Positions 19,554-62,163 are shown, numbered from the stretch's first letter. The stretch: 64,000 nucleotides of DNA from Clostridium sp. CAG:768 (GCA_000437435.1 FR899629.1:171572-235571); one strand, 5' to 3'. Notes: generated by a model not told the origin, from the letters alone. Translations and numbers: made by a program.

Positions 19554-19586
19554 AAAAAGGAGATTTTAAAATCTCCTTTTTTAATA
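19552..19586 (+). terminator. Palindromic rho-independent terminator between rpoD and pilin gene 1
   Basis: AAAAAAAGGAGATTTTAAAATCTCCTTTTTT. Confidence 0.7.
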
Positions 19587-20317
19587 TGTCATTTCCCAAT
19601 TGTCATTTAATAATTTTCCAAAACAGCCATGAATATTTACACCACTGCCGGCCATACAATATCTATTAAATTTCTCTTCTCTTAACTCCTTAGATAAAGG
19701 CACATTAGCATATCCTGTAACATTATCATCAGCATCATTTTGACTATTTAAATCATCTAGTACACCATTATTGTATAAAAACATAACAAACATATCTCTA
19801 CCAATAATATTAGGGCCTTTAGCACCATTGGTATCAACCCATATTTCCATAATTAAGCCAGATCTAGCATTGTAATAAGTTGCAATTGATGCACCACTCG
19901 CTAATACAAAATGACGTTTGCCATACCAAAAAGTCACTTTATCTCCAGAAATTTTCTTATAATTATCTTTTTCAGGGAAACACATTGCTGCATCTGTACC
20001 ACAATCTTTGACAATCTTGAAATAAGTTTTAACAAAATTGCCAGCAGCATCATCACTATTAAGACCTGCCTCAGATAAATTAAGAGCATTTTTATCAGTC
20101 ATTAATTGTAAAGCAGCTTGTTGAAACTCATTATAAACTTTATGCAACTGAACGACATAAGACTTTCTTTGATAATTTTGCATCAAAGTAGGTACTGTCA
20201 TTGCAGATACTACACCAATAATTCCTAAAGTTACTAAAACTTCGGCAAGGGTGAATCCCTTATAGGAGCTTAAATTATGCCCCCCCCCCGAGTTACATTA
20301 CTTAACAATCCAAACAT
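19581..20317 (-). CDS. Prepilin-like (class III signal peptide) protein, paralog 1; as assembled it is out of frame at a 10-G tract in the leader coding sequence
   Basis: RBS AAAGGAG, ATG at 20317, leader MFGLLSNVTR, then the G-tract. In the -1/+2 frame the sequence continues ...HNLSSYKG|FTLAEVLVTLGIIGVVSAMTVPTLMQ, which is a pilin N-terminus. The ORF track only sees the Met inside the hydrophobic segment. Confidence 0.6.
20280..20289 (-). repeat. Poly-C(+)/poly-G(−) homopolymeric tract (10 nt) inside the pilin-1 leader; putative slipped-strand phase-variation switch
   Basis: ccccccccccg read directly; the only other tracts of this kind in the window are in the other pilin genes. Confidence 0.8.
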
Positions 20318-20344
20318 AAACGCTCCTTTCGTATTTATATAGTA

Positions 20345-20353
20345 ATTATAACA
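20345..20353 (-). promoter_or_regulatory. Extended -10 (TGnTATAAT) candidate promoter for pilin gene 1
   Basis: The minus strand reads TTGTTATAAT about 30 nt upstream of the ATG. Confidence 0.35.
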
Positions 20354-20357
20354 AATA

Positions 20358-20385
20358 TGCCCGAACTTTTCAAGTTCGGGCATAT
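20358..20385 (-). terminator. Hairpin terminator downstream of rpsA
   Basis: GCCCGAAC-TTGAAA-GTTCGGGC. Confidence 0.45.
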
Positions 20386-20400
20386 TTTATAATATATCAA

Positions 20401-21477
20401 TTATTCAGCATCTTTATTAATATCTTTAATACTCAATGCAATTCTATGTTCTTGTGGGGTGAATTTTTTAATAAGAACTTCTACACTGTCACCAACTTTA
20501 AATGTATTGAATGGGTTTACATTTTCTTCAGCCATTTCTGAAACTGGTAATAATGCTTCTACTCCAGGGAAAATGTTAATAAATGCACCAAATCCTGTTA
20601 CTTTATTAACAGTACCTGTAATTACTTGTCCTTCTTCAAATTGACCTTCAATTTGTTGCCATGGATCTTCGCCCATTCTTTTTAAAGACAATGAAATTCT
20701 TTTTAATTCATTATCAATTTTGATAATTTTAACTTCAATAGTTTCACCTAAAGAAATTACATCTGAAGGGTGTTTAATTCTTGACCAAGAAATTTCAGAA
20801 ATTGGAAGAAGACCATCGATACCATTAATATCAACAAAAGCACCGAAATCTGCAATTCTTACAACTTCACCTTTTACAACTTGGTCTTCTTGAAGTTCTG
20901 ATAAAATATTATCTACAACTTGATCACGTTGTTCTGCAACAGCTTGTCTTTGAGATAAGATAAGTTTGTTTTTCTTAGGATCAGCTTCTAGAACTTTAAC
21001 TTCAATTTTTGTATCAATTAAACCGTCAAAAGGAGTTCCTGTTCTTAATTGAGAAGATGGAATAAATCCTTTTAAATCAGCAACGTCAACTAATACACCG
21101 CCTTTAACAATTGATACAACTTTAGCTAAAATTGTATCACCTTGAACTTTTGCATCATTTAATTGAGCCCAAGCTTGAGCGAATGCTAAACGTTTCAATG
21201 ATAAAAGCATTCCTTCTTCATCATTTTCTTCTTTTAATACATAGAATTCTTTTTCTTCTCCGATTTCTAAATTGTCGATACCTTCAGAAGCTGGAATTTC
21301 TTTAACAGGTAAAAATGCTTCAGTTTTAGCACCTTTAACGCTAATTAAATATCCATCACTTTCTTTTTTTACAACAGTACCTTCTACAATATCAGCTACT
21401 GAGTAAGATTTAGCGAAAGATTCTTCTAATAATCTTTCGAATTCATCTAAATTTGTTTTTTCTAATGTTGTTGTCAT
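20401..21477 (-). CDS. rpsA: 30S ribosomal protein S1 (short form with four S1 domains)
   Basis: Repeated S1 motifs (G.V..I.DFGAFV.I). Confidence 0.85.
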   Translation of the reverse strand: MTTTLEKTNLDEFERLLEESFAKSYSVADIVEGTVVKKESDGYLISVKGAKTEAFLPVKEIPASEGIDNLEIGEEKEFYVLKEENDEEGMLLSLKRLAFAQAWAQLNDAKVQGDTILAKVVSIVKGGVLVDVADLKGFIPSSQLRTGTPFDGLIDTKIEVKVLEADPKKNKLILSQRQAVAEQRDQVVDNILSELQEDQVVKGEVVRIADFGAFVDINGIDGLLPISEISWSRIKHPSDVISLGETIEVKIIKIDNELKRISLSLKRMGEDPWQQIEGQFEEGQVITGTVNKVTGFGAFINIFPGVEALLPVSEMAEENVNPFNTFKVGDSVEVLIKKFTPQEHRIALSIKDINKDAE

Positions 21478-21482
21478 GTTTT

Positions 21483-22361
21483 TTATATTTCCTTTCTAAG
21501 TTTTTCAATTACATTTTCTATGATATTCTGCGGAGTAGATGCTCCTGCAGTAACTGAAATATGATTTGAACTGACAATCAAATCTTTGTAATTATCAAGT
21601 TCATCATCTTTTTCAATATGAATAGTTTTAGTAATATCTTTTAAAATTTCAGCCAAGTGAGTTGTATTCGCACTTTTTTTAGAGCCTACAACTATAACTA
21701 AATCACTTTCATCGGCTAATTCTCTAGCTTCTTTTTGACGCATAGATGTACTTTGGCAAATAGTATTTGCAATATGAATTTCTTTTGCAATTGACGTTAA
21801 ATATTCAACAATAGAATTTAAAGTCACAAGTCTTTGAGTTGTCTGAACAACAACCCCTACTTTTTTATGACTTTTAATTCTAGCTTCAAACTCTTTTAAC
21901 TGTTCCACAGATGCAGCAACTACAACATTATCACTCCACAGTTCAGCATTTGCTCTTATTGCAATAACTTCAGGGTGCTCTGATTTCCCGACAATAACTA
22001 CAAAATACCCATCTTTTGCAAGTTCTACAGCTTTTTGTTGAACTTTTTTAACATCAGGGCAAGTCAAATCAACAGGTTCAAACCCTGCTTGTTTAATCTT
22101 TTCAATCACTTGAGGGCTCTCACCATGACTTCTGATTACACAAATTCCCTCACCTTTTTCAGGAATTTCATTCAAAGTCTTAATTCCCAAACTTTCAAGC
22201 TCATGAATAACTTGAGTATTGTGGATAAGTTCCCCTAATACAAAAACTTTTTTATCAGGATTTTCATTTTTTAATTTTTTAACAGTTTCAACGGCTCTTT
22301 TTACACCGTAACAAAAACCTGCATATTTGGCTAATTTAATTTCTTTTTTATTTTCAGGCAA
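21483..22361 (-). CDS. ispH: 4-hydroxy-3-methylbut-2-enyl diphosphate reductase
   Basis: GFCYGVKRAV, SHGESP, LTCPDV, QTTQ and VVGSKKSANT are LytB signatures. Confidence 0.9.
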   Translation of the reverse strand: MPENKKEIKLAKYAGFCYGVKRAVETVKKLKNENPDKKVFVLGELIHNTQVIHELESLGIKTLNEIPEKGEGICVIRSHGESPQVIEKIKQAGFEPVDLTCPDVKKVQQKAVELAKDGYFVVIVGKSEHPEVIAIRANAELWSDNVVVAASVEQLKEFEARIKSHKKVGVVVQTTQRLVTLNSIVEYLTSIAKEIHIANTICQSTSMRQKEARELADESDLVIVVGSKKSANTTHLAEILKDITKTIHIEKDDELDNYKDLIVSSNHISVTAGASTPQNIIENVIEKLRKEI

Positions 22362-22445
22362 TGTATAATTGTCTTCTTTCTATAGAACTCGCGCTTTTAT
22401 ACGCTGTACAAATATTAAAATATAAACAATATAAAAAATCAACAG

Positions 22446-22478
22446 AAAAAAGCCTCTTTTTACAAAGAGACTCGTTTC
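22446..22478 (-). terminator. Rho-independent terminator of the 945-aa gene
   Basis: The minus strand reads GTCTCTTTGTAAAAAGAGGC followed by TTTTTTCTG. Confidence 0.55.
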
Positions 22479-22501
22479 TTAACCACTACAAATTTCGTAC
22501 C

Positions 22502-25339
22502 TTAAACCACTAGGTTACCATTTTTGTCTTTACGATACAATTCTTTTGAATCAAAACCATAAGGATTTGTATTATATGAAACATGATTTTGTTTATCTTG
22601 ATTTTTATAATCAATATCGTGTTTTTTTGCAATATTTTGATAACCGATATCTGATACAGCCAAGAATTTAACAACATTTGCAATTTTGTTATTTACATCA
22701 TTAGGTAATCCCATAGATAATAATGCATCCGCTCTATCTTTATCTTTCATTATTGCATTAAACAAATTAGAATCAGTTCTTGCAATCATAACGTAAATAG
22801 TTTTCTTTTGTGCTCCATTAGGAATAGATGATAATAATTTAATCTTTTGTTCTAATGGTAATTTTTTGAAATAATTTGTAAAATATTCTTTTTTCTCAGC
22901 AGAAGAAAGATTATTATATTCACTAGGTGTTAAAGAAGCACCACTTGCAATTTTTGATTTTAAACTTACATTTGAATCAGAATCTGTTGTTATAATATTT
23001 AATAAAGCCTGACTATTTCTTGCTGCAGTTTCTCCAATAATTCTAGGAAGTTCAGCTTCTTGAATATAGCTAGGAGCATTTTCAAGACTTGTAACCGCTT
23101 TTTCTATAGCTTTTTCATTCCCTGATGTGTATACGACATCTAAAGCTTGAGATTGAACAGTTGGATCATAGTCTTTAATGTTTCCTGCTGCATGTTCTTG
23201 AACTTCTGAATATTTAGATTGCATAATATTTTTGTGCATATCTAATTGATTATCTTTATGACAATTTTTAATTTGGTCAGCTAATGCATTTGAATATTTA
23301 ATAGCGTCCTCTTTTTCAAATTGTTGCTCAATTCTATTATGAACAATTGAAAAAGCTTCTGTTTGATTTTCTTTATCTAATTTTGCAACAATACCATTTT
23401 CAGCAGCTACTGCTGTTGCTTTTTCAGATTTTTCAGTTGCAAGATCTAAAGAAGTAATTTGATTTTTACCTTTTAATTTATCAGCATTATTGACAGCATA
23501 TACTTGCAATTCTTCTTTTGCATTTTTATGATTTTGCAATTCAATAACAGCAGTTCCTTGTTTTTCTTCATCATTAATAGTTGTAGTAACTTCAAAACCT
23601 AATTTTTGAATTTCTACATCATCATTACCAGCAGCAATATCAGAAGAATAAATAACTTTTTTATCATCATGTTCTGCACCAGCACAACTTTTTGATGTTA
23701 AAATAATACCGCTTGTTTTTACAGCTGCCAAAGCATCTTCTTTTTCAAACTCATTATTTGACATTGATGCTTCTTTTGTAGCTTTTGCTAACTTTTTATA
23801 TTGCTCAGCATCTAAGTCTTTTGTAGCAAGAGCACCTTTTCCAACTAAAGATACATCATCCAATAATTCAGGATATTGTTTTGAATAAATTGCAAATAAT
23901 TTTGAAGATGCAGAACCATTATAAAATTTAATCGCAGTTTTAATATATTCTGCACGTTGTTCAGGATTCATATCTTTGCATTTTTTATCAATAAATGCTT
24001 TAGCGGCAACTGCTTCCATATCAGAACCTTTAATATGTTCTTTTATTTCTGAAGTAAATGTTTCAAAATCGCTAACAACAGCTTTTTCAAAATCTGTTTC
24101 AGGTTTAGGCATAGATTTTGCAAACGCTTTTAATTCTTCCAATTCTTTTTTGGCTTTTTCATCAGTAGGATTTAATTTTGTCTCTAAAATATTTAACACT
24201 CCTAATTCTTCTGATGTTAAATTTTCACCATTTGCTTTTTTAGCTTTTATTGAATCATATTCAGCTTGTAATTTTTCAAGATTTGCAGCTTTTAATTTTT
24301 TAATTTCTCTTTGTCCAGCTGGAGTATTTACATAACGACTTAAATCAGCTAACTTATTTTCTTCTTCTTTAGTTAAATTTAAACCTTTATCCTTTTTAGA
24401 TTTTAATGCATCATATAATAATTGTTCTTCATTTAAATTATAATATTTAATATATTGTCTTGCATCTGAAGGACATAATTCTACATCTTCAAGCCCTTTT
24501 TCTTTTGCAACAATATCTGCAACTTGAGAAGAAACTAATTTCCAATGAGCAATATATTTTTTATCATTTTCATTTAATGAATTAGGGTCTAGCATTTCTG
24601 CTTCTGCTAAATATTCATCAATTGCATTATAACGAGTAGCATCATCTTGATGCATAAATTCCACATAAGAAATTCCAACTCTGCTAGCAGATTGAATTCC
24701 ATTCATTACAACATCAGCAGCACTATCAATTGCAGAAGCATTTTCTAAATTTTCACTTGTAGATAAATTAATTAAAGCTTTTAAACTTTCAAATTTATCG
24801 CTATTATTTATACCTGTTTTAAATTTTTCAATTAATTGCTGTTTTTGTTCTGGAGTTAATGCATTCCATTGTTCTTCTGAATGTGGTTGAGAGATATAAC
24901 CACCATCATGATTTTTAGTACCATAAATATATTGGCTTTTTACAAACTCTGTAATACAAGCATTTATCTTTTCCTTAGTTGATAATTTATTATATTCTGC
25001 TTTATTAAAAACTCCAAAAGAATCTTCTGAATCAGAAGCTACTTCAGTAGTTTCAGGTTCAAGACTTAAATCTTCAACTTTTTGTTCAGCAGTTTGTTTA
25101 ACTTCTGCTTTTAATTGATTAACTAATTCAGTTTGTTTATTAGCTTCTAAGTTTAGAAAATCAGGATGTTTGTTAATTAAAACCATTAATTCATCTTGTG
25201 AAATATTTAATTTCTTTAATAACTTATCGAAATCCTGATTTTTAACCATTATGGAATTCAATGAAGAAGTATTAGTACTAGAAGTTTGACTTCCAACACT
25301 TGAAACTTTGTTATTAACATTTACTGAATTAACGTTCAT
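22502..25339 (-). CDS. Large hypothetical protein (945 aa), Lys/Glu-rich, predicted coiled-coil, no signal peptide
   Basis: Long ORF with no recognisable enzymatic motif. Confidence 0.55.
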   Translation of the reverse strand: MNVNSVNVNNKVSSVGSQTSSTNTSSLNSIMVKNQDFDKLLKKLNISQDELMVLINKHPDFLNLEANKQTELVNQLKAEVKQTAEQKVEDLSLEPETTEVASDSEDSFGVFNKAEYNKLSTKEKINACITEFVKSQYIYGTKNHDGGYISQPHSEEQWNALTPEQKQQLIEKFKTGINNSDKFESLKALINLSTSENLENASAIDSAADVVMNGIQSASRVGISYVEFMHQDDATRYNAIDEYLAEAEMLDPNSLNENDKKYIAHWKLVSSQVADIVAKEKGLEDVELCPSDARQYIKYYNLNEEQLLYDALKSKKDKGLNLTKEEENKLADLSRYVNTPAGQREIKKLKAANLEKLQAEYDSIKAKKANGENLTSEELGVLNILETKLNPTDEKAKKELEELKAFAKSMPKPETDFEKAVVSDFETFTSEIKEHIKGSDMEAVAAKAFIDKKCKDMNPEQRAEYIKTAIKFYNGSASSKLFAIYSKQYPELLDDVSLVGKGALATKDLDAEQYKKLAKATKEASMSNNEFEKEDALAAVKTSGIILTSKSCAGAEHDDKKVIYSSDIAAGNDDVEIQKLGFEVTTTINDEEKQGTAVIELQNHKNAKEELQVYAVNNADKLKGKNQITSLDLATEKSEKATAVAAENGIVAKLDKENQTEAFSIVHNRIEQQFEKEDAIKYSNALADQIKNCHKDNQLDMHKNIMQSKYSEVQEHAAGNIKDYDPTVQSQALDVVYTSGNEKAIEKAVTSLENAPSYIQEAELPRIIGETAARNSQALLNIITTDSDSNVSLKSKIASGASLTPSEYNNLSSAEKKEYFTNYFKKLPLEQKIKLLSSIPNGAQKKTIYVMIARTDSNLFNAIMKDKDRADALLSMGLPNDVNNKIANVVKFLAVSDIGYQNIAKKHDIDYKNQDKQNHVSYNTNPYGFDSKELYRKDKNGNLVV

Positions 25340-25437
25340 AGCTACTCTCTGATTTTTATATACTATACATGTAAAAACATACCCTAATGGGCTATTTCAA
25401 CATGTTTGCAAAATGTTACATATGTTTACATAGAATA

Positions 25438-30124: not shown

Positions 30125-30813
30125 CTAGTAATTCATCTCCCAGTTATCGTTAAGAATTTGTCCGAAAGGCTTCCAGTTAGCATCCGCACTATTTCTTTCA
30201 TCTTCCGTCAAAGGAAGCGAAACAGCATTGTAATTAAAAGTATCAATTGCCCCGCTGCTGTATACTGCCATATAAAAAGTATCTCTGCCAAGTATATTAG
30301 GACCTTTTTGCCCGTTAGTATCGACAAGAATATTCATAACTTTGCTTATTTTACCGTCATTTACATAAATTGGACGTACTGACGCACCGTTTGCCAGAAC
30401 AAAAGATGTACTGCTGTGACCATCCAAAACATTTACGTCATCAGTTGAATTTAAGTATTTATATGAATTCGCGAAGCAAGGAGTTAATGAATTTTCGCAA
30501 GTTTGAACAATCTTAAAGTAATCAGTAATAAATTCCTGTGCTTTAGCATTCGAATTAATACCTGCCTCGGCAAGATTTAGAGCATTTTTATCGGTCAAAT
30601 ACATCGTTACCGCCTGCGAAATCTCATTATAAACTTTATGTAGTTGAGTTACATAAGTCTTTTTTTGATGATTTTGCATTAAAGAAGGCACTGTCATTGC
30701 GGAGACAACACCTATAATCCCAAGTGTTACTAACACTTCTGCCAGTGTAAACGCGTGAGAAGAAGCTAAGAAACGCCCCCCCCCCGACATTTAAATAATC
30801 TAAAAAATTTCAT
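30125..30813 (-). CDS. Prepilin-like protein, paralog 2; the RBS-proximal ATG (30813) is out of frame at the 10-G tract, while an internal ATG (30790) is in frame
   Basis: RBS AAAGGAG, ATG, leader MKFFRLFKC, G-tract, then ...RFLASSHA|FTLAEVLVTLGIIGVVSAMTVPSLMQ. The C-terminus NDNWEMNY is shared with paralog 1 (NDNWEMTY). Confidence 0.6.
30776..30785 (-). repeat. Poly-G (minus-strand) tract of 10 nt in the pilin-2 leader
   Basis: gcccccccccccg read directly. Confidence 0.8.
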
Positions 30814-30834
30814 AAATAGCTCCTTTCTTTATTT

Positions 30835-36921: not shown

Positions 36922-38706
36922 ATGGCTAGAATTCAACAGTTATCAAAGCATTTAATAAACCAAATTGCAGCGGGAGAAGTAATTGAAAGACCGGCATCTG
37001 TTGTAAAAGAACTTGTAGAAAACTCTGTTGATGCAGGCTCATCTAAAATAAGCATTGAAATTAATAATGATTGTAGAGATATAAGAGTTGCAGATAACGG
37101 CTGCGGAATTCACCCTGATGATATTATGCTTGCTTTCTCAAAACATGCAACAAGCAAAATTACGTCAGATGAAGATTTATTCAATATTCATACTCTCGGA
37201 TTTAGAGGGGAAGCTCTATCAAGTATTATTTCTATTTCAAAATTAACTTGTACCACAAGAACCGCTGATTTTGATACAGGTACAAAAGTTAAATGTGAGA
37301 ATTCTGAAGTAAAGCAAGTTGAGACTGGCTGTGCAGTAGGCACAATTATGGATATAAAAGACCTCTTTTACAATCTTCCTGCACGTTTAAAATTCTTAAA
37401 AAGTTCCAATACTGAATTTTCTTATATTCAAGAACTCGTTCAAGCAATAGCTCTTGCACATCCTGAATGTTCTTTTGAACTTAAAAAGAACGGAAAAACA
37501 ATGCTTAAAACAGCTGGGCAAAATAACCTTTTACAAACAATAAAAGAAGTTTACTCAGCAGATGTAATAGCGAATTTAAAAGAAGTCTTAAAAACTGACA
37601 ATCTTGCAGGCTTAAAAATATCAGGATATGTAAGTACCCCTGATTATACTCGTTCAAGCAAAAAAAGTTATCATATCTACATAAATTCAAGAACGGTTAA
37701 ATGTCCGATTTTCCAAAAAGCAATAGATACAGCTTATAAAAGTCTTATTGCAAACGGGAAATATCCTTTTGTGGTATTGAATTTAGAAATTCCACCATCA
37801 GATGTTGATGTGAATGTCCACCCGACAAAAAAAGAAGTAAGATACAAAAATACAAACCAAATATTCAATTTTATCTACACTTCAATTCAAGCTGGACTTG
37901 CAAATTATGTTGAAAAAAATACAATTAATCCGCAACAATATACTCCAAATGAAAATTTTCAACAAAACAATATTATTGATTTTGTTCAGCCAAAAATGGA
38001 ACAATCTGGAGATATTTTCTTTGATAAGCAAGACGATACAATCTATGTATCTGATAAATTAATGGAGCGAGAAACCAAAGAATTAGAAAAAACTCAAATT
38101 GAACAAACAGAACAAAAACAATTTTTTGTACCAGTTGAAAAGGAGACTGAACCAGAAGAAAATATTGTAGGGCAATACAAAAACACATATATTCTTGTAG
38201 AAAAAGAAGACGGACTTGAAATAGTTGACCAACACATAGCAGAAGAAAGATACATCTATGAAAAATTGATGTCTGAAAAAAATATTGTATCTCAAATGCT
38301 TTTTGTATCAGACGTTGTACCTGTATCAAGTTCTGAAGCAGAACTTATAAAAGAAAACATTGATAAATTTGAAAAATTCGGATATGGAATAGAATTTTTG
38401 AAAGATAATGAACTTATTTTCCGCAAAGTTCCACAAATGATTGCAAAAGTAAATCCTAAAGAAATTTTAGCAGACATTTTAGAAAATATAGACGGAAACA
38501 TTGACAGATTAGAAGAAAAAATTCTAATCACAACCTCTTGCAAAGCATCAGTAAAAGCCGGTCAAAAGCTTTCAACTTGGCAAATGCAAGAAATTATCAA
38601 AAAATGGCGTACAACAAAAATGCCATACACTTGTCCTCATGGTCGTCCAATTGTAAAATTCTTCCCGCATAAAGAAATTGCAGGATTTTTCCAAAGGAAT
38701 TTCTAA
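36922..38706 (+). CDS. mutL: DNA mismatch repair protein MutL
   Basis: GHKL ATPase motifs (ELVENSVDAG, DNGCGI, GFRGEAL) and a C-terminal dimerisation domain. Confidence 0.9.
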   Translation: MARIQQLSKHLINQIAAGEVIERPASVVKELVENSVDAGSSKISIEINNDCRDIRVADNGCGIHPDDIMLAFSKHATSKITSDEDLFNIHTLGFRGEALSSIISISKLTCTTRTADFDTGTKVKCENSEVKQVETGCAVGTIMDIKDLFYNLPARLKFLKSSNTEFSYIQELVQAIALAHPECSFELKKNGKTMLKTAGQNNLLQTIKEVYSADVIANLKEVLKTDNLAGLKISGYVSTPDYTRSSKKSYHIYINSRTVKCPIFQKAIDTAYKSLIANGKYPFVVLNLEIPPSDVDVNVHPTKKEVRYKNTNQIFNFIYTSIQAGLANYVEKNTINPQQYTPNENFQQNNIIDFVQPKMEQSGDIFFDKQDDTIYVSDKLMERETKELEKTQIEQTEQKQFFVPVEKETEPEENIVGQYKNTYILVEKEDGLEIVDQHIAEERYIYEKLMSEKNIVSQMLFVSDVVPVSSSEAELIKENIDKFEKFGYGIEFLKDNELIFRKVPQMIAKVNPKEILADILENIDGNIDRLEEKILITTSCKASVKAGQKLSTWQMQEIIKKWRTTKMPYTCPHGRPIVKFFPHKEIAGFFQRNF

Positions 38707-41583: not shown

Positions 41584-42129
41584 TTATCTTAAAGCAAATT
41601 TACAACCACAATAATTCTGTCGATACAAACCAAGCTCTTTTGATATTTTATTTGTTTTCAAAAAACCATCCTTTTTCTTAAAATCTATTGCCAAATAATT
41701 TAAATCAAACTCATTTGCAATACGCTCTCCTATAGAAGTTAATTTTTGAAAATTCTTATGAGGACTTATAACCATTGATGTTGTAATATATTGAATTCCA
41801 TTCTCTTTAGCGAATTTAGCAGTTTTTAACAATCTTAATTCAAAACATTTGTCACATCTTATACCTTTTTCAGGTTCATTTTCTAATCCTGCAACAGATT
41901 CATAATATAAATCCGTTTCATAATCTCCTACAACCAACTCACAACCTAAATGCTTACAAAGACTAATTTCAGCGTCTAATCTTTTTTGGTATTCCTCTAT
42001 CGGATAAATATTAGGATTATAAAAATAAGCAATAACTTGATATCCCATATCTTTTAATAAAGATATAGGATATCCTGAACATATTGCACAACAAGTGTGT
42101 AAAACTATTTTATCTTTTTTCTGCTCCAA
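41584..42129 (-). CDS. queH: Epoxyqueuosine reductase QueH (DUF208)
   Basis: LHTCCAICS near the N-terminus and NYCGCKFA at the C-terminus are the QueH Cys signatures. Confidence 0.75.
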   Translation of the reverse strand: MEQKKDKIVLHTCCAICSGYPISLLKDMGYQVIAYFYNPNIYPIEEYQKRLDAEISLCKHLGCELVVGDYETDLYYESVAGLENEPEKGIRCDKCFELRLLKTAKFAKENGIQYITTSMVISPHKNFQKLTSIGERIANEFDLNYLAIDFKKKDGFLKTNKISKELGLYRQNYCGCKFALR

Positions 42130-43303
42130 GTTTTTCCACCCATTCTTGGTATTCTTTATATGTTTTTATACCAATATAAACTTCATTATTTATCATTGTA
42201 GAAGGCGTACCTTGAATACCTCTTTTATAAGCGTCATCAATTTGATCTTTAATCTCTTTTTGAGTTTCTGGGCTATTTGCATCTTCTTGCAATTTTTCCA
42301 TATCAAAGCCCATATCTGCAGCATATTTTAAGACATCTTCTTCAGTTTGAGGTTTTTTCTCAAATAACATATTATTCATATCCCATAACTTTCCTTGTTT
42401 TTCTGCTGCAATTGAATATCTAGCATCAATACAAGATCCATAATGGAAAGGTCCTTGCAAATATTTATTACAATCTGTATCTAAAGGAAGATTTCTATGA
42501 ACAATCTTAATTCCTTTCATTTCTTTTGCCAATTTATGCATCATTGAATTATGAACAGGACAAATTGGGCATTGATAATCGGAATATGTATAGATTATAA
42601 CCTTAGCGTCTTCATCTCCTAAAAGATTACCTTTTACTGCATATTTATTCTTTTTATGTGTAAATTCTTTAAATTCATACTGTCTCTTGACTTGAGGTGC
42701 AAATACAAAAGTAATTCTTGTATAAGCTAAAAATCCACCTGCAATAAGCATAACTATTATAAAAGCTATTAAATATTTTTTGATTTTAACCGCATCTAAA
42801 AAGTCGATAAAACTTTGTTTTATAGATTTTACAAAACCACCGTCTTTGAAATTTGTAGCTATACAACCTATCAAAAGATTTAATATGTATGTAAATGCAC
42901 AAAGTACACATAATTTTTTGATTTCAAATAAACTTAAACATAACAAAATCATTGAAATCAAAAAAGAAATTAGGCCTAAAGAAGCGATATAATCCAATGG
43001 ATTTTTAAACACTTCCAAAAATTTTAACAACTTAAAGTTTTTCAACTTTTGAGCAAACAACATTAACAAGACGAAAGAATAGAAAAATAATCCCCAATAA
43101 GCTAGAGGAATTCCTAAAAATTGAGCTTCTGTTGTTTTTGCAATACCATCACAATCAATAAATTCATTTATTGAACAAAAACTTGCTAATGCATATGGGT
43201 TAAAATTTGCATTATAATATATTATTGCAAGTTTAATAGTTGTTATAATTCCAATTAAAGAAATTACGCCAATCGCAACCTTTTTCTTTGTTTCTTTTTG
43301 CAT
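42110..43303 (-). CDS. Vitamin K epoxide reductase (VKOR) domain fused to a DsbA-like thioredoxin domain
   Basis: The N-terminal multi-TM region carries a CxxC in TM4 (LCVLCAF). The C-terminal Trx fold has a CPIC active site (YSDYQCPICPV). The probable start is MQKET at 43303. Confidence 0.65.
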   Translation of the reverse strand: MQKETKKKVAIGVISLIGIITTIKLAIIYYNANFNPYALASFCSINEFIDCDGIAKTTEAQFLGIPLAYWGLFFYSFVLLMLFAQKLKNFKLLKFLEVFKNPLDYIASLGLISFLISMILLCLSLFEIKKLCVLCAFTYILNLLIGCIATNFKDGGFVKSIKQSFIDFLDAVKIKKYLIAFIIVMLIAGGFLAYTRITFVFAPQVKRQYEFKEFTHKKNKYAVKGNLLGDEDAKVIIYTYSDYQCPICPVHNSMMHKLAKEMKGIKIVHRNLPLDTDCNKYLQGPFHYGSCIDARYSIAAEKQGKLWDMNNMLFEKKPQTEEDVLKYAADMGFDMEKLQEDANSPETQKEIKDQIDDAYKRGIQGTPSTMINNEVYIGIKTYKEYQEWVEKLGAEKR

Positions 43304-43474
43304 ACATACCTCTCCTATTATAAATCTATAATACAATTTTAATGAATATAAATCAATAGCATAAAGCAGAATAAAAAATAACCTTTGGGTAGTATCAATA
43401 AATCCTTAGCTTGAATAAATTTAAAATATATGATATAATAATATACATACGTAGATTATTTATGAGAGGTTGAT

Positions 43475-49932: not shown

Positions 49933-50024
49933 AAAATTTGTTAAATACTGTAAATTTTGTATATACTGCCACTTGTCAAAAAAACATGTTCAGTTAAAAA
50001 TACATGACGGGAAGGAAAAAGACA

Positions 50025-52532
50025 ATGCTTATAGGAAGATTAACGAACTACGACACAGTGAAACAACGACAAAAGTCAGCAGGAGAATTATCTCCAAAAC
50101 ATGTTCCTCTTTCTTCCGAGTTCATGTCATCAAAAAATTTAATAAACGAGAGACCTTTAAAAAGTATTTCAAACGATTTATCTTTTAAAGGTCTTTCTTT
50201 TAATGGAGATAAAAAACAACCTCCAAAAGATGACAAAATGAAACCACTTCTTTACACTGTAGGAGCTTTAATAGCTACTGGTTTAGCTTTAAGATTTGCG
50301 CCAAGCTATAAAAAAGCTGGAGAATACAGCGTTAATGAATTCTTGCAATTTGCAAAAAAACATACAGGAATAGAAAAAATTGGCAAAAACGGAGAAAAAA
50401 TTCAATCTTCTATTGGCCAAGAATTATTTGAAAGTGTCAGAGATTCTGAACTTACAAAGAAAATGGTTGAAATCAACGGAGACAAAATCACTTTCAACAA
50501 AAAGACTATTCCACAACTTATATGGGACGGCTTAATTTATCCTGTAAAAATTCTACCTGCAGATATCCTAAACGGGATTGTCACATTAGCAGGGAAAATC
50601 AAACCCCTTAAAGGCTGGGCAGACAAAACTCTGCAACAACCATTCTTTAAATCTATAAGACAACGTTCAAAAATAGACGCTAAAGTAAACTCTTTACGCG
50701 GCTTATTTGAAACAATGAAAGGTTTGAAAGATAAATCTGATGCTGAAATTTCATCAAAAATATTCAGACAATCAGTAAAAATGTTTGACCCAAAAACTGG
50801 CAACTATGATACAAAACATGAAAGATCTCTAAACAGATTAGTATCAGGTCTTCCTCCTGCAATATTCCTTGCAAACGATGCTTATAACCTATCAAGAATG
50901 ATGGATGATGACAAAAAAGCAGCATCTCACGAACAAAAAGTAAGATTTAACCAAGAAATGGCAAGAATTGGCTTCAATGCATACATCACACTTGTAACAT
51001 TAGGTGCTTTAAATAAATACATCAACAATTCTAAAATGGGTATTATGTTGATGACAGCATTAACAACTCTTACAACAGAAGCTTTCTCTCGTGTAATCAA
51101 CGGTAAACACATTACAAGATTAACTCCAGAAGAAGCAAGAGCTGAAAATGAGAAAAATCACGCACCAGAAGCTAATATTAAACCTGATTTATCATTCAAA
51201 GCATCAGAAAATAAAGAAGATAAAGAAAAACAACAAAAGCCTCTACTATCTTTAAATACAGTACTTAAAGCAGTAGGTGTAATTATTGGTGGAGGATTTG
51301 CAGTAAAAGGACTTAGAAAAGTTTCTTCAATAGATAATGCTTGGAAATCATTCTCTGGCTACTTCAAAAGACATTATAATGATTTAACACAAATTAAGGA
51401 TTACAGAATTTCAAAAGAAAAATTCAATGAAATCACTAAAGTTCTTGATAAAAACGGCTTCAATAATTTAGCTGAAGAATATAGAAACATCGCAAAAACA
51501 GCAACAAATCCTGACGGAACAATAAGTCTTGGAGCAAAAGATAAGAAAATTAAACCATTCGTAAACTTCTTCTTAGCTCCATTCAAATTTGTATGGAAAT
51601 ACTGTACATTACCATACACAGTAATTGATGATGCAATTAAATCAATAAGTAAAAAATCAAGTTTCTTAAAATTAGACATAAGTGATAAAAATACTCTTAG
51701 CACAATTGTAGAAAATTATGCTAAAGAAAAAAATATTCCAAACACAAAAGCTCTTGAAGAATTTATACAAAATGTTTCAAACGGCAAAATTGCAAAAAAT
51801 ACAAAATTATCAGCTGATCAAGAAGAATTACTAAGAAGAATTTCAAACGTATCATCTCTTGCAACAAGTATTGAAAACATCGGACATCAAGCAGCTAAAA
51901 AGAACTTATCACCAAAAGAATTCCAAGATTATGTAAAAGACAATATCCTAAAATCTTTTAACGTTGATACAATGTCTAACGTATCTAACAGTGAATTATC
52001 AAATCTTGCAAAAAACGCAGCTCTGGCAGCTACAATCTGGTTCCTTATGACAGATAACTACAACATGGTAATGTTGAAATCAAACGGGAACGATGTCGAA
52101 GGGGCTAAAACAAAATTCAAAGAAAGATTTGTACAAGAAGGTTCAAGATTATTCTATCAAACATTATTAATTGACCTATTCAACAACACATTCAGCAAAC
52201 AATATCACCAATCATTATTCGGAATGAGCTGGATTACATTCACAAATACAACAATAGGTGAATGGTTGACAAGAAAATCAGTAGGTATTGCAGTAGGAAC
52301 ACACTCAAGAGATCAATTAATTGCTCTTGAAGAAAAACAAGACAAAGCAACAGGCTTCACTAGAAAATACTATGACTTTATGAAACGATTAACAGGTAAA
52401 CGTTCAATAAAATCTTACGAAGTTGCACCTAAAAATACAGAAACTAAAATAGATAATAATGAACAAGAAACTAAACAACAAAATATAAATTTTACAAATA
52501 ATTCAAAACTTTCAAAAATGATTAAAGGCTAA
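50025..52532 (+). CDS. Large hypothetical membrane-associated protein (about 835 aa)
   Basis: Long ORF. GGAAGG RBS before the ATG at 50025. Several hydrophobic segments, no known domain recognised. Confidence 0.5.
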   Translation: MLIGRLTNYDTVKQRQKSAGELSPKHVPLSSEFMSSKNLINERPLKSISNDLSFKGLSFNGDKKQPPKDDKMKPLLYTVGALIATGLALRFAPSYKKAGEYSVNEFLQFAKKHTGIEKIGKNGEKIQSSIGQELFESVRDSELTKKMVEINGDKITFNKKTIPQLIWDGLIYPVKILPADILNGIVTLAGKIKPLKGWADKTLQQPFFKSIRQRSKIDAKVNSLRGLFETMKGLKDKSDAEISSKIFRQSVKMFDPKTGNYDTKHERSLNRLVSGLPPAIFLANDAYNLSRMMDDDKKAASHEQKVRFNQEMARIGFNAYITLVTLGALNKYINNSKMGIMLMTALTTLTTEAFSRVINGKHITRLTPEEARAENEKNHAPEANIKPDLSFKASENKEDKEKQQKPLLSLNTVLKAVGVIIGGGFAVKGLRKVSSIDNAWKSFSGYFKRHYNDLTQIKDYRISKEKFNEITKVLDKNGFNNLAEEYRNIAKTATNPDGTISLGAKDKKIKPFVNFFLAPFKFVWKYCTLPYTVIDDAIKSISKKSSFLKLDISDKNTLSTIVENYAKEKNIPNTKALEEFIQNVSNGKIAKNTKLSADQEELLRRISNVSSLATSIENIGHQAAKKNLSPKEFQDYVKDNILKSFNVDTMSNVSNSELSNLAKNAALAATIWFLMTDNYNMVMLKSNGNDVEGAKTKFKERFVQEGSRLFYQTLLIDLFNNTFSKQYHQSLFGMSWITFTNTTIGEWLTRKSVGIAVGTHSRDQLIALEEKQDKATGFTRKYYDFMKRLTGKRSIKSYEVAPKNTETKIDNNEQETKQQNINFTNNSKLSKMIKG

Positions 52533-54700: not shown

Positions 54701-54744
54701 GTCTAAAAATATGATATATTATTTTTAGCAAATAGTTTTTATAA

Positions 54745-55431: not shown

Positions 55432-55465
55432 AAAGTTTTAAATTAAAAACAAAAGAGGATAATTA

Positions 55466-57079
55466 ATGGCTATAGTAATATCAACTTCACAAGGTGAAAA
55501 AGTATTCAACAAAGATGTTATAAATGTTGGTACAAATCCAAACTGCGACATTATTTTAAATACAGGATATGATGTTTTATTAACACTCGAATATAAATTT
55601 TCAGAAAACAAATGTGTTATTATTAACACATTTAAAAGTGACAAAGTTTTATTCAAAGGCCAACCTATTAAACGTGTGGAGGTTAGTAGCGTTTGCAAGC
55701 TTATGTTTGCAGATACAGATGAATTTTTAAGTGTAAAAATTATCGCAGAAGCTCCTGTTAATAATACTAAAACAATAACCTCAATCGCTAAAGAAGATTT
55801 GACTGAAGAAGATATAAAAAAACTGTATGGAAAAGATGTAAATGCAATTACGAAAGTTAAACTTGAAAAACAAAAAGAAGATTTGGAAGATGCTCGTGTT
55901 GCAATTATCAAACAAGTAGCTTTCCATATCAATGATTTAAAACAAAAATTATCAACAAATTCAAAAACAAGCATCTTCTTACATATAGCTATGTTTTTAA
56001 GTTCTATGGTATGTGCATTTGGTGTTTCAAATTACCTTATGGGACTTGAAATCAAAGAATCAGCAAACTTTTTACATATGCCGACTAATATAAAAGTTTG
56101 GGGCGTATATACTATTTTGATTTATGGAATATGTTTGCTTTTAAAACAAGGAATTTATCTATATTTACAAAGTAATATTCAAAAAGAAATGTCTAAATCA
56201 GCAAAATTAGGACAAAGTTTTATGCTGATTTTCTCATTAATATTTGTACTTGGAATTTATGTCGTAAACCTTATTTATTATATGAATTTGAATGATTTTA
56301 TGACATTTGCAATTTTCATTTCGTTCTTTTTCTCAGGTATAATGGCAGTTCTTGCAATAAGCTGCGGATATTTCAAATGTAACGGTATGGAATGGGCAAT
56401 GACACTTGATAAATATGAATATAGAGAAGATTTTGAAAGTGTTATAAAATCATACAGACAATGGATTGAAAGATATATTAACAGTTTAAGTAATTCGAAA
56501 TTGCAATATATCAAAGATAAAATGTTTAATCTTCAATTAAAATCTGTAGGAGAAACTGTTGTAGGTATTTTGACAGCCCCATTTTTAGCTTATGGTGTAT
56601 CAAATACTCTTGCGATGTGCTTTCCTGAAGCAGCAGGTTGGGTAAGAATCTCAGGGTTAAGAATCAGTCCTGTATTTTTGACTCTTGCAACATTTTTAAT
56701 TATTTTTGCATTTTTCTCTTTTGTAAATGCATTTTTCTGTACTAAAAAAATTCAAGGCTCACAAGTAATTAAACAAGACGGTTTTTCTGATTACCAGCAC
56801 CACGGAGTTACAATATATGGACTTGAAGGTGTAAGAAAATTAAATTCTGAAAAAAACAGATCCCTTGCAATAGCTTGTGCAATTATATTTATTGAATTTG
56901 CAATGAACGTATCATATTTTATGACAGAAATTGGTGGAGATATGCAAGGAATGTTTTTAAGTTTAGTTGCTGCACTTGTACCAACAGCTCTATTAATTGC
57001 AGAGACACTTATGTTAAGCCAAACTAAATTTGATATCTACGCTTGTGATGAATTGTTAGCAAAAGTTGATAAAGATTAA
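55466..57079 (+). CDS. FHA-domain protein fused to a large polytopic membrane domain
   Basis: The N-terminal roughly 100 aa have FHA-like topology (VINVGTNPNCDIIL...KFSENKCVIINTFKSDKVLFKGQPI). At least eight TM helices follow. Confidence 0.5.
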   Translation: MAIVISTSQGEKVFNKDVINVGTNPNCDIILNTGYDVLLTLEYKFSENKCVIINTFKSDKVLFKGQPIKRVEVSSVCKLMFADTDEFLSVKIIAEAPVNNTKTITSIAKEDLTEEDIKKLYGKDVNAITKVKLEKQKEDLEDARVAIIKQVAFHINDLKQKLSTNSKTSIFLHIAMFLSSMVCAFGVSNYLMGLEIKESANFLHMPTNIKVWGVYTILIYGICLLLKQGIYLYLQSNIQKEMSKSAKLGQSFMLIFSLIFVLGIYVVNLIYYMNLNDFMTFAIFISFFFSGIMAVLAISCGYFKCNGMEWAMTLDKYEYREDFESVIKSYRQWIERYINSLSNSKLQYIKDKMFNLQLKSVGETVVGILTAPFLAYGVSNTLAMCFPEAAGWVRISGLRISPVFLTLATFLIIFAFFSFVNAFFCTKKIQGSQVIKQDGFSDYQHHGVTIYGLEGVRKLNSEKNRSLAIACAIIFIEFAMNVSYFMTEIGGDMQGMFLSLVAALVPTALLIAETLMLSQTKFDIYACDELLAKVDKD

Positions 57080-57081
57080 TT

Positions 57082-58209: not shown

Positions 58210-58215
58210 CTTGTT

Positions 58216-59749: not shown

Positions 59750-59956
59750 AATATAACTCCATTAAAATCATAACACAAAAATACAGCTTTTACTATTTTC
59801 TGGAATTTGGCATCAAGTTAAATTTAAGAAATGTAAAATTATAATCTAAAATTATAAAGATTAAACCAAAATATCCGTCAATAATCTTGTCAAAAAAATT
59901 GACTTTAAGAAAAAAGTCATTAAACAAAAAGTAGAAAGTAAGAATATTGAAAGGAT

Positions 59957-60460
59957 GTGGGTATGTCATCTATCAGTTCAATCAGTAGTGCTCAAGCTGC
60001 CTCGATGTCAACCTATAAATGCGAAGAACTCAGTTCTTCTACCAAATTAAAACTGGAAGCATTAGGTATTAACCCGACAACTGTAACATCGGAAGCTCAA
60101 GCTCAAAGTTTAATAGCGCAAGCTGAAGCGACAAAACAGCAACAAAATTCAGGACAACAACAAGGAGGAGGTAATTCATCAGAACAAGAACTTCTATCAG
60201 AAGCAAAAACTCTTGCATCCGCAGTTGGAGTAAGCGTTTCATCTAATGACAGTTTAGACGATATTATAGATAATATTTCCGATCAAATTCAGGTTATGCT
60301 GGATTCAGGGGATCAATCTAAAATATCAGCTGCTCAAGGATATCAAGCTCAATTGGCAAGTCTTTCTGATAGAGTAGACTCTGTTCAAAATACACAACAA
60401 AATATTTTTAACGCAATGGATATGGTGTCTATAAGCAACAAATACGCTTTAGGATTATAG
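59957..60460 (+). CDS. Hypothetical Ser/Gln-rich protein
   Basis: ORF of 167 aa. Confidence 0.35.
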   Translation: MGMSSISSISSAQAASMSTYKCEELSSSTKLKLEALGINPTTVTSEAQAQSLIAQAEATKQQQNSGQQQGGGNSSEQELLSEAKTLASAVGVSVSSNDSLDDIIDNISDQIQVMLDSGDQSKISAAQGYQAQLASLSDRVDSVQNTQQNIFNAMDMVSISNKYALGL

Positions 60461-60492
60461 AAGAAAAATTTTCTAAAAATAACAATTATTGG

Positions 60493-60527
60493 AAGGCTTT
60501 CATAAAACTATGAAAGCCTTTTTGAAT
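60493..60527 (+). terminator. Bidirectional terminator
   Basis: AAGGCTTTCATA-AAAC-TATGAAAGCCTT 12-bp stem followed by TTTG. Confidence 0.65.
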
Positions 60528-60534
60528 ATTTTTA

Positions 60535-61282
60535 TTATTCCTTCCATTCATCAGCCCAATTAGGATAAGAATGATGTAAATAATCTACATTTTGATATTT
60601 TTGTATCCATTCAGAACATCTAAATCCATTCCGTCCAGAACCATTACCTTTTATATCACAACTACTGGCACCTAAATCCTTAACATTCCGAAGTGTACCA
60701 GTATTACTTATATAAAACTTAAACACATCATATCCTAAAGCATTAGGTCTTTGGGCACCATTAAAATCAACAGATAAAGTAAATCTATCTTCCCAACCAT
60801 CATCTCGACCATTTGGCATATTTAAACAAAATATCATACCGTTTTCAAGAATTCCGACTTGAGAATAAGTCCCACATACCTCTGCAGATTCTGTCTTTTT
60901 ATCCAAAGCATAAAATTTATATGGAACACAATCTTTATATGTTCCATATGGGATACACATTTTTAATAACTTAAAATATTGAGCATAAAAATCTTGATCT
61001 AAATGACGGAAATCATTCCAAGGACCAAATAAATTAGTTAATTGACCACCATTATCATTTGCCATTTGTGTAAAACCATTTGAAAAAATAGATACAGCTG
61101 CATTAAACTGTGAAAGAATCTGTCTATCCCTATAATGATTAATCAAACTTGGTAAAGTCATTGCTGCGACTATACCGATTATTCCTAATGTTATCAATAC
61201 CTCTGAAAGCGTAAACCCTAGTGTAGAGAGCCTTAAATTGCCCCCCCCCCCTGAAGTTTCCATATAATTTAATCTTTTCCAT
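60535..61282 (-). CDS. Prepilin-like protein, paralog 3 (tandem with paralog 4); the 11-G tract is in frame with a second ATG (61263) but out of frame with the RBS-proximal ATG (61282)
   Basis: RBS AAAGGAG, ATG, leader MEKIKLYGNF, G-tract, then NLRLSTLG|FTLSEVLITLGIIGIVAAMTLPSLIN. Confidence 0.6.
61241..61251 (-). repeat. Poly-G (minus-strand) tract of 11 nt in the pilin-3 leader
   Basis: gccccccccccct read directly. Confidence 0.8.
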
Positions 61283-61313
61283 CCACTGCTCCTTTCATAT
61301 TTATCCTTTAGAG

Positions 61314-61342
61314 ATTATACAATATTTTTCAAAACCTTACAA
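61314..61342 (-). promoter_or_regulatory. Sigma70-like promoter for pilin gene 3 (-35 TTGTAA, 17 nt, -10 TATAAT) inside a duplicated acetyltransferase 3' fragment
   Basis: The same elements with the same spacing occur upstream of pilin 4. Confidence 0.35.
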
Positions 61343-61387
61343 GGGTTACCAATTGCTACAACATTTGAGTGAATATCTTTTGTAACC
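61315..61387 (-). repeat. Non-functional duplicate of the 3' end of the acetyltransferase gene; it encodes ...VVAIGNPCKVLKNIV* and is a duplication scar that carries the pilin promoter
   Basis: Near-identical to 62196–62268. Confidence 0.7.
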
Positions 61388-61429
61388 TCAATATATTAAT
61401 ACAAAATCGTTGTATAAAAATTTTACATT

Positions 61430-62163
61430 TTAATAATGCTCACCTGATGTCCAATTAAGTTTCTCATAATGCAAATAATCAACATTTTGAAATTTTTGTA
61501 TCCACTCTGCACATTTATATCCATTATAAGGATTGCCTTTAAATCTTAATTCACAAACTCCTCCATCAGGAGCTTTTCTAGGATGAACTATTCCTGCATC
61601 CGTAATAAAAAACTTAAAAACATCATATCCCATAGTGTTAGGGCCTTTTGCGCCATTTAAATCTACAGATAATGTAAATTCATCCCCAACTCCAGGCATA
61701 CCTAAACAAAAAATCATACCATTTTCAAGAATTCCAACTTGCGTCCAAATACCACAAACATCATTATACGTTTCTGTTTTTTTATCTAGAGCATAAAATG
61801 TATAAGGAACACAATCCTTATACGAACCATATGGGATACACATTTTTAACAATTTAAAATATTGTGCATAAAAATCTTGACCTAAATGACGAAAATCATT
61901 CCAAGGACCATATAAATTTCTTAAATCCCCACCATTATCATTTGCCATTTGAGTAAATGCATTTGAAAATAATGATACTGCATGATTGAACTGTGAAAGA
62001 ATTTGCCGATCTCTATAATGATTAATCAAACTTGGTAAAGTCATTGCTGCGACTATACCGATTATTCCTAATGTTATCAATACCTCTGAAAGCGTAAACC
62101 CTAGTGTAGAAAGCCTTAAATTGCCCCCCCCCCGAGTTTTGCAAGTAATTTAATCTTTTTCAT
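61430..62163 (-). CDS. Prepilin-like protein, paralog 4; out of frame at the 10-G tract in the leader as assembled
   Basis: RBS AAAGGAG, ATG at 62163, leader MKKIKLLAKL, G-tract. With 11 G it continues ...GGGGNLRLSTLG|FTLSEVLITLGIIGIVAAMTLP. The ORF track sees only the internal Met. Confidence 0.6.
62124..62133 (-). repeat. Poly-G (minus-strand) tract of 10 nt in the pilin-4 leader
   Basis: tgccccccccccga read directly. Confidence 0.8.

Follow-up and report, generated by a model that had tools for sequence, protein, structure and literature searches.

The 64-kb window analysed here, a 64,000-nt stretch of the Clostridium sp. CAG:768 genome, contains four type IV prepilin-like genes (named here pil1 to pil4), each with a tract of 10 or 11 G inside the coding sequence of its leader peptide. 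Genes of the same design recur throughout the relatives of this bacterium, where the start codon and the pilin reading frame are, as a rule, one base out of register. We consider it probable that they are subject to slipped-strand phase variation, as a family of 10-16 members in which each pilin is ON at the modal tract length plus one, and thus in a minority of cells. Clostridium sp. CAG:768 is a gut bacterium of the Candidatus Gastranaerophilales (Melainabacteria), as indicated by exact protein matches to the window (CDE45306, CDE45318, CDE45358 and CDE45359) and by the related loci described below. The class of mechanism is well known; what would be new is its occurrence in the Gastranaerophilales, with an unusually uniform design. 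In the literature on Melainabacteria, Gastranaerophilales and Vampirovibrionia we found no description of poly-G, slipped-strand or homopolymeric phase variation, in line with the initial annotation of this DNA, which regarded the arrangement as undescribed for the lineage; a 2026 preprint on gut Gastranaerophilales mentions neither pili nor frameshifts.

The tracts appear as poly-C on the plus strand, at 20280-89 (10 nt), 30776-85 (10 nt), 61241-51 (11 nt) and 62124-33 (10 nt), and belong to pil1, pil2, pil3 and pil4, respectively, all of which are encoded on the minus strand together with their upstream signals. The window has a GC content of 30.3% over 64 kb. These four tracts are its only G/C homopolymers of 6 nt or more and its longest A/T runs are 8 nt, so that, as first annotated, no other homopolymer reaches 9 nt; a hand estimate from base composition gives a chance expectation of about 0.001 for G/C runs of 10 nt or longer. 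Such homopolymers, above the approximately 7 nt that characterizes simple sequence repeat (SSR) contingency loci, lie inside a reading frame far beyond what chance would give. A six-frame scan of the window finds exactly four prepilin N-termini of the FTLxEV type, each with a tract upstream.

The pil1 gene (19581..20317, from the start codon at 20317 to the stop) is preceded by an extended Shine-Dalgarno (SD) sequence, GAAAGGAGC, at 20322..20330 and by a promoter-like site, TTGAAA-17-TATAAT with a TG extension, at 20345..20373 (11 of 12 matches, a consensus match only). Its mature pilin coding region, from the F of G↓FTLAEV (the arrow marks cleavage), occupies 19581..20255. The same SD sequence precedes pil2 (30125..30813, start codon at 30813) at 30819..30827, pil3 (60535..61282) at 61288..61296 and pil4 (61430..62163, start codon at 62163) at 62169..62177, and promoter-like sites of the form TTGTAA-17-TATAAT are found before pil3 (61314..61342) and pil4 (62195..62223). 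This 9-mer occurs four times in the 64 kb, once per pilin leader, while the other genes of the window have mostly weak SD sequences or none. The tract, SD, leader and FTLxEV motif of the architecture first proposed are thus present at all four loci, but AAAGGAG lies 8-18 nt from the -10 box, less than the ~24 nt given at first. pil3 and pil4 form a tandem duplication that extends over the final ~75 nt of the maltose/galactoside O-acetyltransferase-like gene lying upstream (62196-62753). The duplicated fragments are at 61312-61388 and 62195-62270 (minus strand), and the copy, the 3' end of the acetyltransferase gene, gives pil3 the same promoter-like site as pil4. The acetyltransferase stop codon sits within the TATAAT that would serve as the -10 box of pil4.

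We translated the four genes in silico with tracts of G7 to G13. In pil1, pil2 and pil4 the ATG proximal to the ribosome-binding site (RBS) is joined to the pilin frame at G11 or G8, the G11 products being 245, 229 and 244 aa, respectively. At the assembled G10 each of the three is one nucleotide short, as had been noticed, and reads 15 codons followed by a stop (MFGLLSNVTRGGGII, MKFFRLFKCRGGGVS and MKKIKLLAKLGGGAI, respectively); in pil1 this leader open reading frame (ORF) spans 20270..20317 and its TAA ends just before GCTCC. The stop lies two codons past the last tract codon, and not five to seven codons after the tract as first described. A change of one unit therefore toggles between an intact ORF and early termination, as in known contingency loci. 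The in-frame leader of ~21 aa differs from the short basic leader of 5-7 aa typical of type IVa pilins, and resembles in length the leaders of type IVb pilins.

The statement that every pilin of the window is one nucleotide away from ON holds for pil1, pil2 and pil4, with two qualifications. In pil2 at G10, another ATG, at 30790 (MSGGGRFLASSHA↓FTL), is in frame as well, and is incidental: no SD precedes it, and it is missing from the P0139 allele, found on 56 contigs. The window form of pil3, in turn, is atypical. With its G11 it is in frame with a second ATG (61263), 19 nt downstream of the RBS-proximal one, and only at G10 with the RBS-proximal ATG, exactly as the initial annotation had it. 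However, the window reads TTC-A-G11, with an A that is absent in other assemblies, whereas all nine other assemblies read have TTC-G10 and are one base short like pil1, pil2 and pil4. An exact-protein look-up placed the window-type allele on only 2 contigs.

The G11 reading of pil1 matches PF07963 with 26.1 bits (cut-off 21.2) and TIGR02532 with 22.7 bits (cut-off 16.3), and pil4 matches TIGR02532 with 20.0 bits (cut-off 16.3); the PF07963 scores of pil2, pil3 and pil4 fall just below the 21.2 cut-off. All have the G/A↓F-x-x-x-E cleavage and methylation motif followed by a hydrophobic helix that define class III prepilins, and the tract-less paralogs carry MKKA or MKKG leaders. Across 40 family members C221 and C232 are invariant, as are C106 and C113, and the conserved cysteines point to a C-terminal disulfide in the D-region of these pilins. 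The window also encodes a VKOR-DsbA/thioredoxin fusion (42110-43336, minus strand), which, as a disulfide-forming system, could act on the conserved cysteine pairs.

To place the four genes in the lineage, we compared them with relatives found by protein search (2613, every one metagenomic) and with two DNA sets: 80 loci from species-representative genomes, and about 20 informative metagenome loci. The latter are the low-GC matches among 120 given by a DNA-pattern scan of metagenomes, most of which lie on unrelated contigs of ~50% GC. Exact-sequence look-ups were made against ~15 billion proteins, with similar places collapsed and few DNA examples readable per allele. All tract lengths given here are the consensus of metagenome assemblies, except those of the complete genome MEL.A1.

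These comparisons reveal a large type IV pilin-like gene family in the Gastranaerophilales, with at least 10-16 copies sampled per genome. Its N-termini fall into groups, namely a short MKKA↓FTL, many of the type ...GGG(G)xNL..K(G/A)↓FTL and a few with PPP, and many of the protein calls are truncated at an internal Met. The search of other genomes of the clade that the initial annotation had proposed recovers the same module across the 80 and ~20 loci: a promoter-like site, GAAAGGAGC, ATG, 6-10 codons, C-G(n)-C, 7-9 codons and G/A↓FTLxEV. More than 90 distinct leaders keep the homopolymer, which is G10 in ~85% of cases and G8-G12 or C9-C10 in the remainder, and the tract is interrupted in only three (L022, L033 and L080). 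That relatives retain an uninterrupted homopolymer, rather than mixed GGN codons, supports the original reading of these genes as slipped-strand contingency loci.

In 488 kb of related loci, 69 of the 82 G/C runs of at least 7 nt are on the coding strand and no more than 130 nt upstream of an FTLxE motif. The others are mostly poly-C versions, or instances of the same ATG-tract module before other pilin-like genes (GYTLAEI type) or before a GT2 glycosyltransferase. In this last case (L074, 6293-6450) the GT2-type glycosyltransferase (…ILPVYNVEKYL…DDGSTD…) has an N-terminal extension with a G11 tract after nine codons, and the assembled sequence is in frame, so the poly-G repertoire of the lineage extends beyond pilins. 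Counted per bin, there are 8 OFF and 2 ON tract loci in BRZ_LG bin75, and 14 OFF and 1 ON in BRZ_EH bin71. MEL.A1 (CP017245), which is complete and belongs to another genus, has one G10 module that is one base short and one G11 module in frame (L036, 2760-3030; L061, 280-640); its modules precede leaders of ~90-110 aa that run in frame into FTLAEV pilins. In nearly all leaders the tract is flanked by C on either side. GnT motifs have been reported as substitution hotspots (PMC12344412), which suggests a possible reason for these flanks.

The leaders vary in several further ways. Poly-C leaders (C9-C10, encoding ...APPP...) are present in L015 (~2965-3004), L027, L063 and L077. At several sites a cassette of ~100 nt (TTGTAA-17-TATAAT, an SD and a short MKKA or MKRxxA leader) separates a G10 module from the mature pilin coding region (L097 2293-2400 and L223 2413-2520; also L026, L028, L043, L044, L046 and L048). 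Some orthologs of pil3 and pil4 have unrelated leaders with no tract (MEHHYNDKQA↓FTL, MLRHKIRSDKFG↓FTL). Small palindromic elements (GCTACGCACGTAGC; GGTGCTACGCACGTAGCC, read as ...EGATHVA...; and CACAATTnTTGTG) are inserted in frame in some leaders (L030 ~3000-3100, L057, L069 and L081; L019, L022, L032, L040 and L060), where they at times duplicate the FTLAE motif and at times adjoin the upstream side of the tract. Finally, pil1 orthologs from five samples (L001-L005) differ from window positions 20256-20279 by six substitutions and one extra base within the ~20 nt between tract and cleavage site; the change (HNLSSYKG versus RLTAPNKG) puts G10 in frame, and the flanking sequences are almost identical. 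The recurrence of the same leader peptides in distant paralogs suggests that leader segments may be exchanged between pilin genes.

The state of being one base short is a lineage-wide rule and goes beyond a snapshot of the four loci of the window. Of the G10 loci whose SD and ATG are clear, 50 lack one base, 4 are in frame and none lacks two. Four of the five G11 loci are in frame, and the G9 and G12 loci need +2, so that the in-frame length is again 11. The independent metagenome scan gave the same result, with +1 needed in 16/16 G10 modules. The rule does not follow from a single spacing kept by shared ancestry, since at n=10 it is obeyed by 27 of 31 distinct spacing combinations, with ATG-to-tract distances of 18-87 nt and tract-to-cleavage-site distances of 19-121 nt. 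Poly-C leaders mostly obey it as well (two of three C10 leaders need +1 and one needs +2; C9 needs +2), which indicates that the homopolymer counts, and not G as such.

The tract length differs between assemblies of identical or nearly identical alleles, as is characteristic of contingency loci: G10, G11 and G12 were observed for pil1, G10 and G11 for pil2, and G9, G10 and G11 for pil4. For pil1, the truncated OFF call of 206 aa is found on 64 contigs, the exact G11 ON protein (P0122) on 1 contig and another G11 allele (P0128) on 4 contigs, and one and the same allele has G12 in L006 and G10 in L087. For pil2, the exact G11 ON protein (P0136) is found on 2 contigs and the G10 form called from the second ATG (P0135) on 35. 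For pil4, the OFF call of 204 aa is found on 113 contigs and the exact G11 ON protein (P0165) on 3, whose DNA shows G11; a G9 form is present in L097. No G8 forms were found in the exact-sequence look-ups. In three independent assemblies pil4 has G11 (ON) and pil3, 880 nt away on the same contig, has G10. The comparison of tract lengths in relatives suggested at the outset therefore yields both near-identical alleles that differ and adjacent paralogs that differ independently on one contig. In other alleles a flanking indel or substitution regains the frame with G10 kept: the spacer is 1 nt longer in P0001 (five samples), an additional C precedes the tract in P0124 (eight contigs), and indels flank it in L049 and L076. 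This fits G10 being the stable length.

Tract lengths taken from assemblies raise the question of a sequencing or assembly artefact, in which the true tract would be G11 everywhere and short-read pipelines would undercount it by one. Such an error would explain both the one-short uniformity and the in-frame G11 loci, the data all come from metagenome assemblies, and in the CAG:967 assembly scaffold N gaps occur a few bases after G11 (L030 ~6540, L060 ~350), a hint of read heterogeneity or of sequencing trouble at the tracts. However, the pil4 G11 beside the pil3 G10, resolved on one contig in three assemblies, shows that G10 is no systematic miscount, and G10 was obtained independently in many projects and with many assemblers, also on contigs of near genome length (1-2.2 Mb). 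The same rule holds in two of the three C10 poly-C leaders, and the four lineages that are in frame at G10 through a flanking change would be broken by a true G11. The distribution of stop codons after the tract, described below, also suggests that the G10 frame is really translated. We therefore regard an artefact as very unlikely.

The genes assembled as OFF are intact. The mature ORFs of out-of-frame loci have a median length of 217 aa, equal to that of in-frame and tract-less paralogs, and close pairs of OFF-assembled genes show dN/dS values of 0.05-0.21; they are under purifying selection and functional. Three of the four window genes and ~85% of the related loci have no usable in-frame start as assembled, and the out-of-frame copies could on this ground be taken for decaying pseudogenes of a redundant family. 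This explanation is already largely refuted, and we find it barely credible: besides the intact ORFs and the low dN/dS, the sole lesion is always the same one-base offset at the tract, and the promoter and SD are conserved. An alternative start codon downstream of the tract was considered and ruled out, as in 70 of 71 leaders the stretch from the tract to the cleavage site contains no ATG, GTG or TTG in the pilin frame, and the second ATG of pil2 is not conserved. Incidental in-frame ATGs upstream occur in only 7 OFF leaders.

Conserved features are also found past the tract. All of 57 leaders have a stop (TAA or TAG) in the G10 frame no more than three codons past the tract, compared with 40 of 57 for the other off-frame. 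In the leaders of L006-L101 the tract is followed by a conserved C, a T-rich stretch, TAA or TAG and GCTCC, and in the window the corresponding segments (20265-20279, 30761-30775, 61226-61240 and 62109-62123, minus strand) contain GCTCC in pil1 and the variants GCTTC, GCTCT and GCTTT in pil2 to pil4. GCTCC occurs in two codon phases (20 versus 15 leaders), which implies a constraint on the nucleotides. It is complementary to the GGAGC of the SD, and a hand-specified helix between the SD and this anti-SD was 88% paired. Nevertheless, no significant covariation supports the SD:GCUCC pairing, the SD and the post-tract region pair in only ~30 of 71 leaders when these are folded singly, and RNAalifold on 32 leaders gives no conserved stimulatory structure, only a 4-bp pairing of four weak pairs between the G tract and CUCC at -2.4 kcal/mol. 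The leaders match no known RNA family in Rfam. On the basis of the weak folds and the absent covariation, we rejected an RNA structure as an established element and retain the SD:GCTCC relation as bare complementarity.

These features bear on the possibility of programmed recoding on a fixed G10, in which ribosomes would shift by -1 on G GGG GGG, or the polymerase would add a G, to give a low, set amount of pilin in all cells plus a short peptide. By all three counts of the frame rule given above, a gene that is out of frame is always offset in the sense that a ribosome shifting by -1, or one base added to the transcript, would repair. The zero-frame stop within three codons has its like in known recoding cassettes, the pilin genes have an SD of unusual strength that is specific to them, and G10 is kept even where other mutations regain the frame. 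On the other hand, a fixed site does not predict variants of G9, G11 and G12 at the DNA level that differ between adjacent loci on one contig, the leaders have no conserved stimulatory RNA structure, SD:GCUCC covariation or Rfam match, and the transcriptome insertions seen in E. coli and Buchnera all fell in A/T runs, with G/C runs judged not prone to slippage (PMC5574713). Overall, recoding appears unlikely, and is the main rival to phase variation. It could coexist with DNA-level switching, to which it could add a low constitutive leak. The stricter version, in which G10 is a selected recoding site and a dedicated 5' cassette (a perfect SD, about 8 codons, C-G10-C, a zero-frame stop and GCUCC complementary to the SD) yields pilins only through a -1 shift or polymerase slippage, is slightly more doubtful. 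If it were true, many alternative pilins would be present at low stoichiometry in every cell, and no lineage before this one would have employed poly-G throughout as a recoding signal in structural genes of the pilus, perhaps in addition to DNA-level switching.

The constraint on the nucleotides past the tract could also mean that the tract and the adjoining bases act together at the nucleic-acid level, for instance as a site of recombination or protein binding through which 5' leader modules are swapped, the frameshift being secondary. The conservation of GCTCC in two codon phases, the orthologous mature pilins with quite different leaders or an inserted promoter cassette, and the hotspot of local change in the 20 nt past the tract of the pil1 orthologs would all agree with such an element. 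Poly-C leaders may in addition carry an inverted version of ~28 nt, in which the 16-18 nt that precede the C tract, when reverse-complemented, are identical to the bases after the G tract at 11-12 of 16 positions. As the 95th percentile of shuffles is 11/16, this similarity is marginal, and we did not rely on it. Moreover, no recombinase gene or flanking inverted repeats were seen, the strict frame rule and the in-frame G11 loci would be left unexplained, and the same tract module precedes a glycosyltransferase, a classic type of contingency gene. We consider this explanation highly improbable.

For slipped-strand phase variation we propose the following sequence of events. The tract would be a hypermutable homopolymer whose length is altered by one base through replication slippage, and only a length of 11 (or 8, or 14) would join the start codon to the pilin frame. 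At G10, ribosomes would make a peptide of 13-16 residues and stop two or three codons past the tract. G10 is probably the mutational mode, towards which shorter tracts gain and longer tracts lose one base, as measured in Campylobacter jejuni. There, poly-G tracts have a modal length, G8 and G9 being biased to insertion and G10 and G11 to deletion, with 38.8 x 10^-4 mutations per division from G11 to G10 and 3.7 x 10^-4 from G10 to G11, and in capA the ON length is G11, G10 and G12 being OFF (PMC3401435). With ON one base above the mode, the ON state of each pilin would be short-lived and confined to a minority of cells. Different cells would then display different sets of pilins, leading to phase and antigenic variation of the pilus. 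A G10 mode, in a population near mutational equilibrium, would also give a G10 consensus and hence uniform metagenome assemblies. The tracts, the frames, the conservation of the cassette, the differences in length between and within assemblies and the purifying selection are observed; the switching rate, the mutational mode, the heterogeneity within populations and the biological role are inferred.

Several points weigh against phase variation. The ~85% share of G10, across paralogs that are ~50% identical and across genera, is tighter than the G9-20 of Neisseria (PMC5953494), although it may be explained if the metagenome consensus represents the population mode. The conserved zero-frame stop and GCTCC are superfluous for a simple switch and resemble the stop of a recoding site, so that some features of the cassette could point to recoding. 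Mismatch repair may also lower slippage rates relative to Campylobacter: the window encodes a MutL homolog (DNA_mis_repair, MutL_C and HATPase_c; 36922-38706, plus strand), so repair is at least partly present, unlike in Campylobacter, and this bears on the expected mutability of the tracts. Finally, the evidence consists of consensus assemblies, and mixed lengths in one population and reversible switching are predictions.

Homopolymeric-tract phase variation of Neisseria pilC1 and pilC2 was reportedly described by Jonsson et al. in 1991. As in pilC, a gene of the type IV pilus carries a homopolymer of G (or C) near the 5' end of its coding sequence, with a one-base ON/OFF switch. PilC, however, is an adhesin and retraction factor with a Sec signal peptide and not a pilin, it exists in two copies, and its tracts vary widely (G9-20, within the reading frame; PMC5953494), whereas here the tract is in the class III leader of 10-16 pilin paralogs and nearly always G10. 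A second likeness is to Neisseria opa, also a scattered multigene family of surface proteins in which each copy has its own promoter and 5' repeat. The opa repeat sits in the leader-peptide coding region. Its copies switch independently, so that cells show different subsets, comparable to the varied pilin sets proposed here; in contrast, opa has CTTCT pentamer repeats (4-12 loci per genome; PMC5953494) in widely varying numbers and encodes outer-membrane adhesins rather than pilins.

The C. jejuni phasome offers a further comparison. We know of no shared 5' cassette in that phasome. As in C. jejuni, long G/C runs of a low-GC genome are almost confined to contingency genes (PMC3401435), and in that species the modal length arises from a length-dependent indel bias and 80% of the tracts are poly-G on the coding strand (PMC3401435). 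C. jejuni differs in that its targets are mostly glycosyltransferases, capsule and flagellar-modification genes, with gene-specific ON lengths and a mode of G9, and it has been suggested to be without efficient repair of such indels (PMC3401435), while CAG:768 encodes MutL.

Two other systems share parts of the design. The Streptococcus gallolyticus pil1 locus encodes a sortase-dependent Gram-positive pilus that is reportedly controlled by attenuation of transcription at a terminator, and it matters where the leader stop lies. Its pilus expression is set, like here, by a short repeat in a leader peptide ORF upstream of the pilin (PMC3894217); in our case an in-frame leader ORF is continuous with the pilin itself, and we found no terminator. 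Recoding cassettes (insertion sequence (IS) elements, dnaX and endosymbiont poly(A) tracts; PMC1088944, PMC5574713) likewise have a conserved homopolymer of at least 9 nt, an ORF one base out and a zero-frame stop after the run. They differ in that the known bacterial cases are on A or T runs, with G/C runs not prone to slippage in transcriptome data (PMC5574713), whereas the pilin leaders have length variants at the DNA level and no stimulatory structure.

The pilin genes of the window lie among housekeeping genes (rpoD, S1, NAD kinase, ftsZ, aldolase and mutL). No pilus machinery, including prepilin peptidase and the assembly ATPase and platform, is found among the genes of the 64 kb; pilB, pilC, pilD and pilT have been reported for the related Gastranaerophilus termiticola (PMC5877343). 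Four large ORFs of 945, 842, 568 and 537 aa (22502-25339, minus strand; 50004-52532, plus; 15032-16738, minus; and 55466-57079, plus, respectively) have no Pfam match at E<=1e-5.

The Gastranaerophilales are uncultured, non-photosynthetic relatives of cyanobacteria from human and animal guts, whose interaction with the host is almost wholly obscure. Gene callers cut their tract-bearing pilins short (64 contigs have the 206-aa call and 113 the 204-aa call) or take an incidental ATG as the start, so the family is mis-annotated in most metagenome-assembled genomes (MAGs). A design in which the modal length plus one is ON would provide a clean case for studying the co-tuning of tract mutational bias and reading frame, and poly-G as a recoding signal. 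If slipped-strand phase variation is indeed at work, these bacteria have a large dedicated system of at least 10-16 independently switchable pilin genes sampled per genome, which would imply strong fluctuating selection on the cell surface, exerted for example by IgA, phages or changing attachment substrates.

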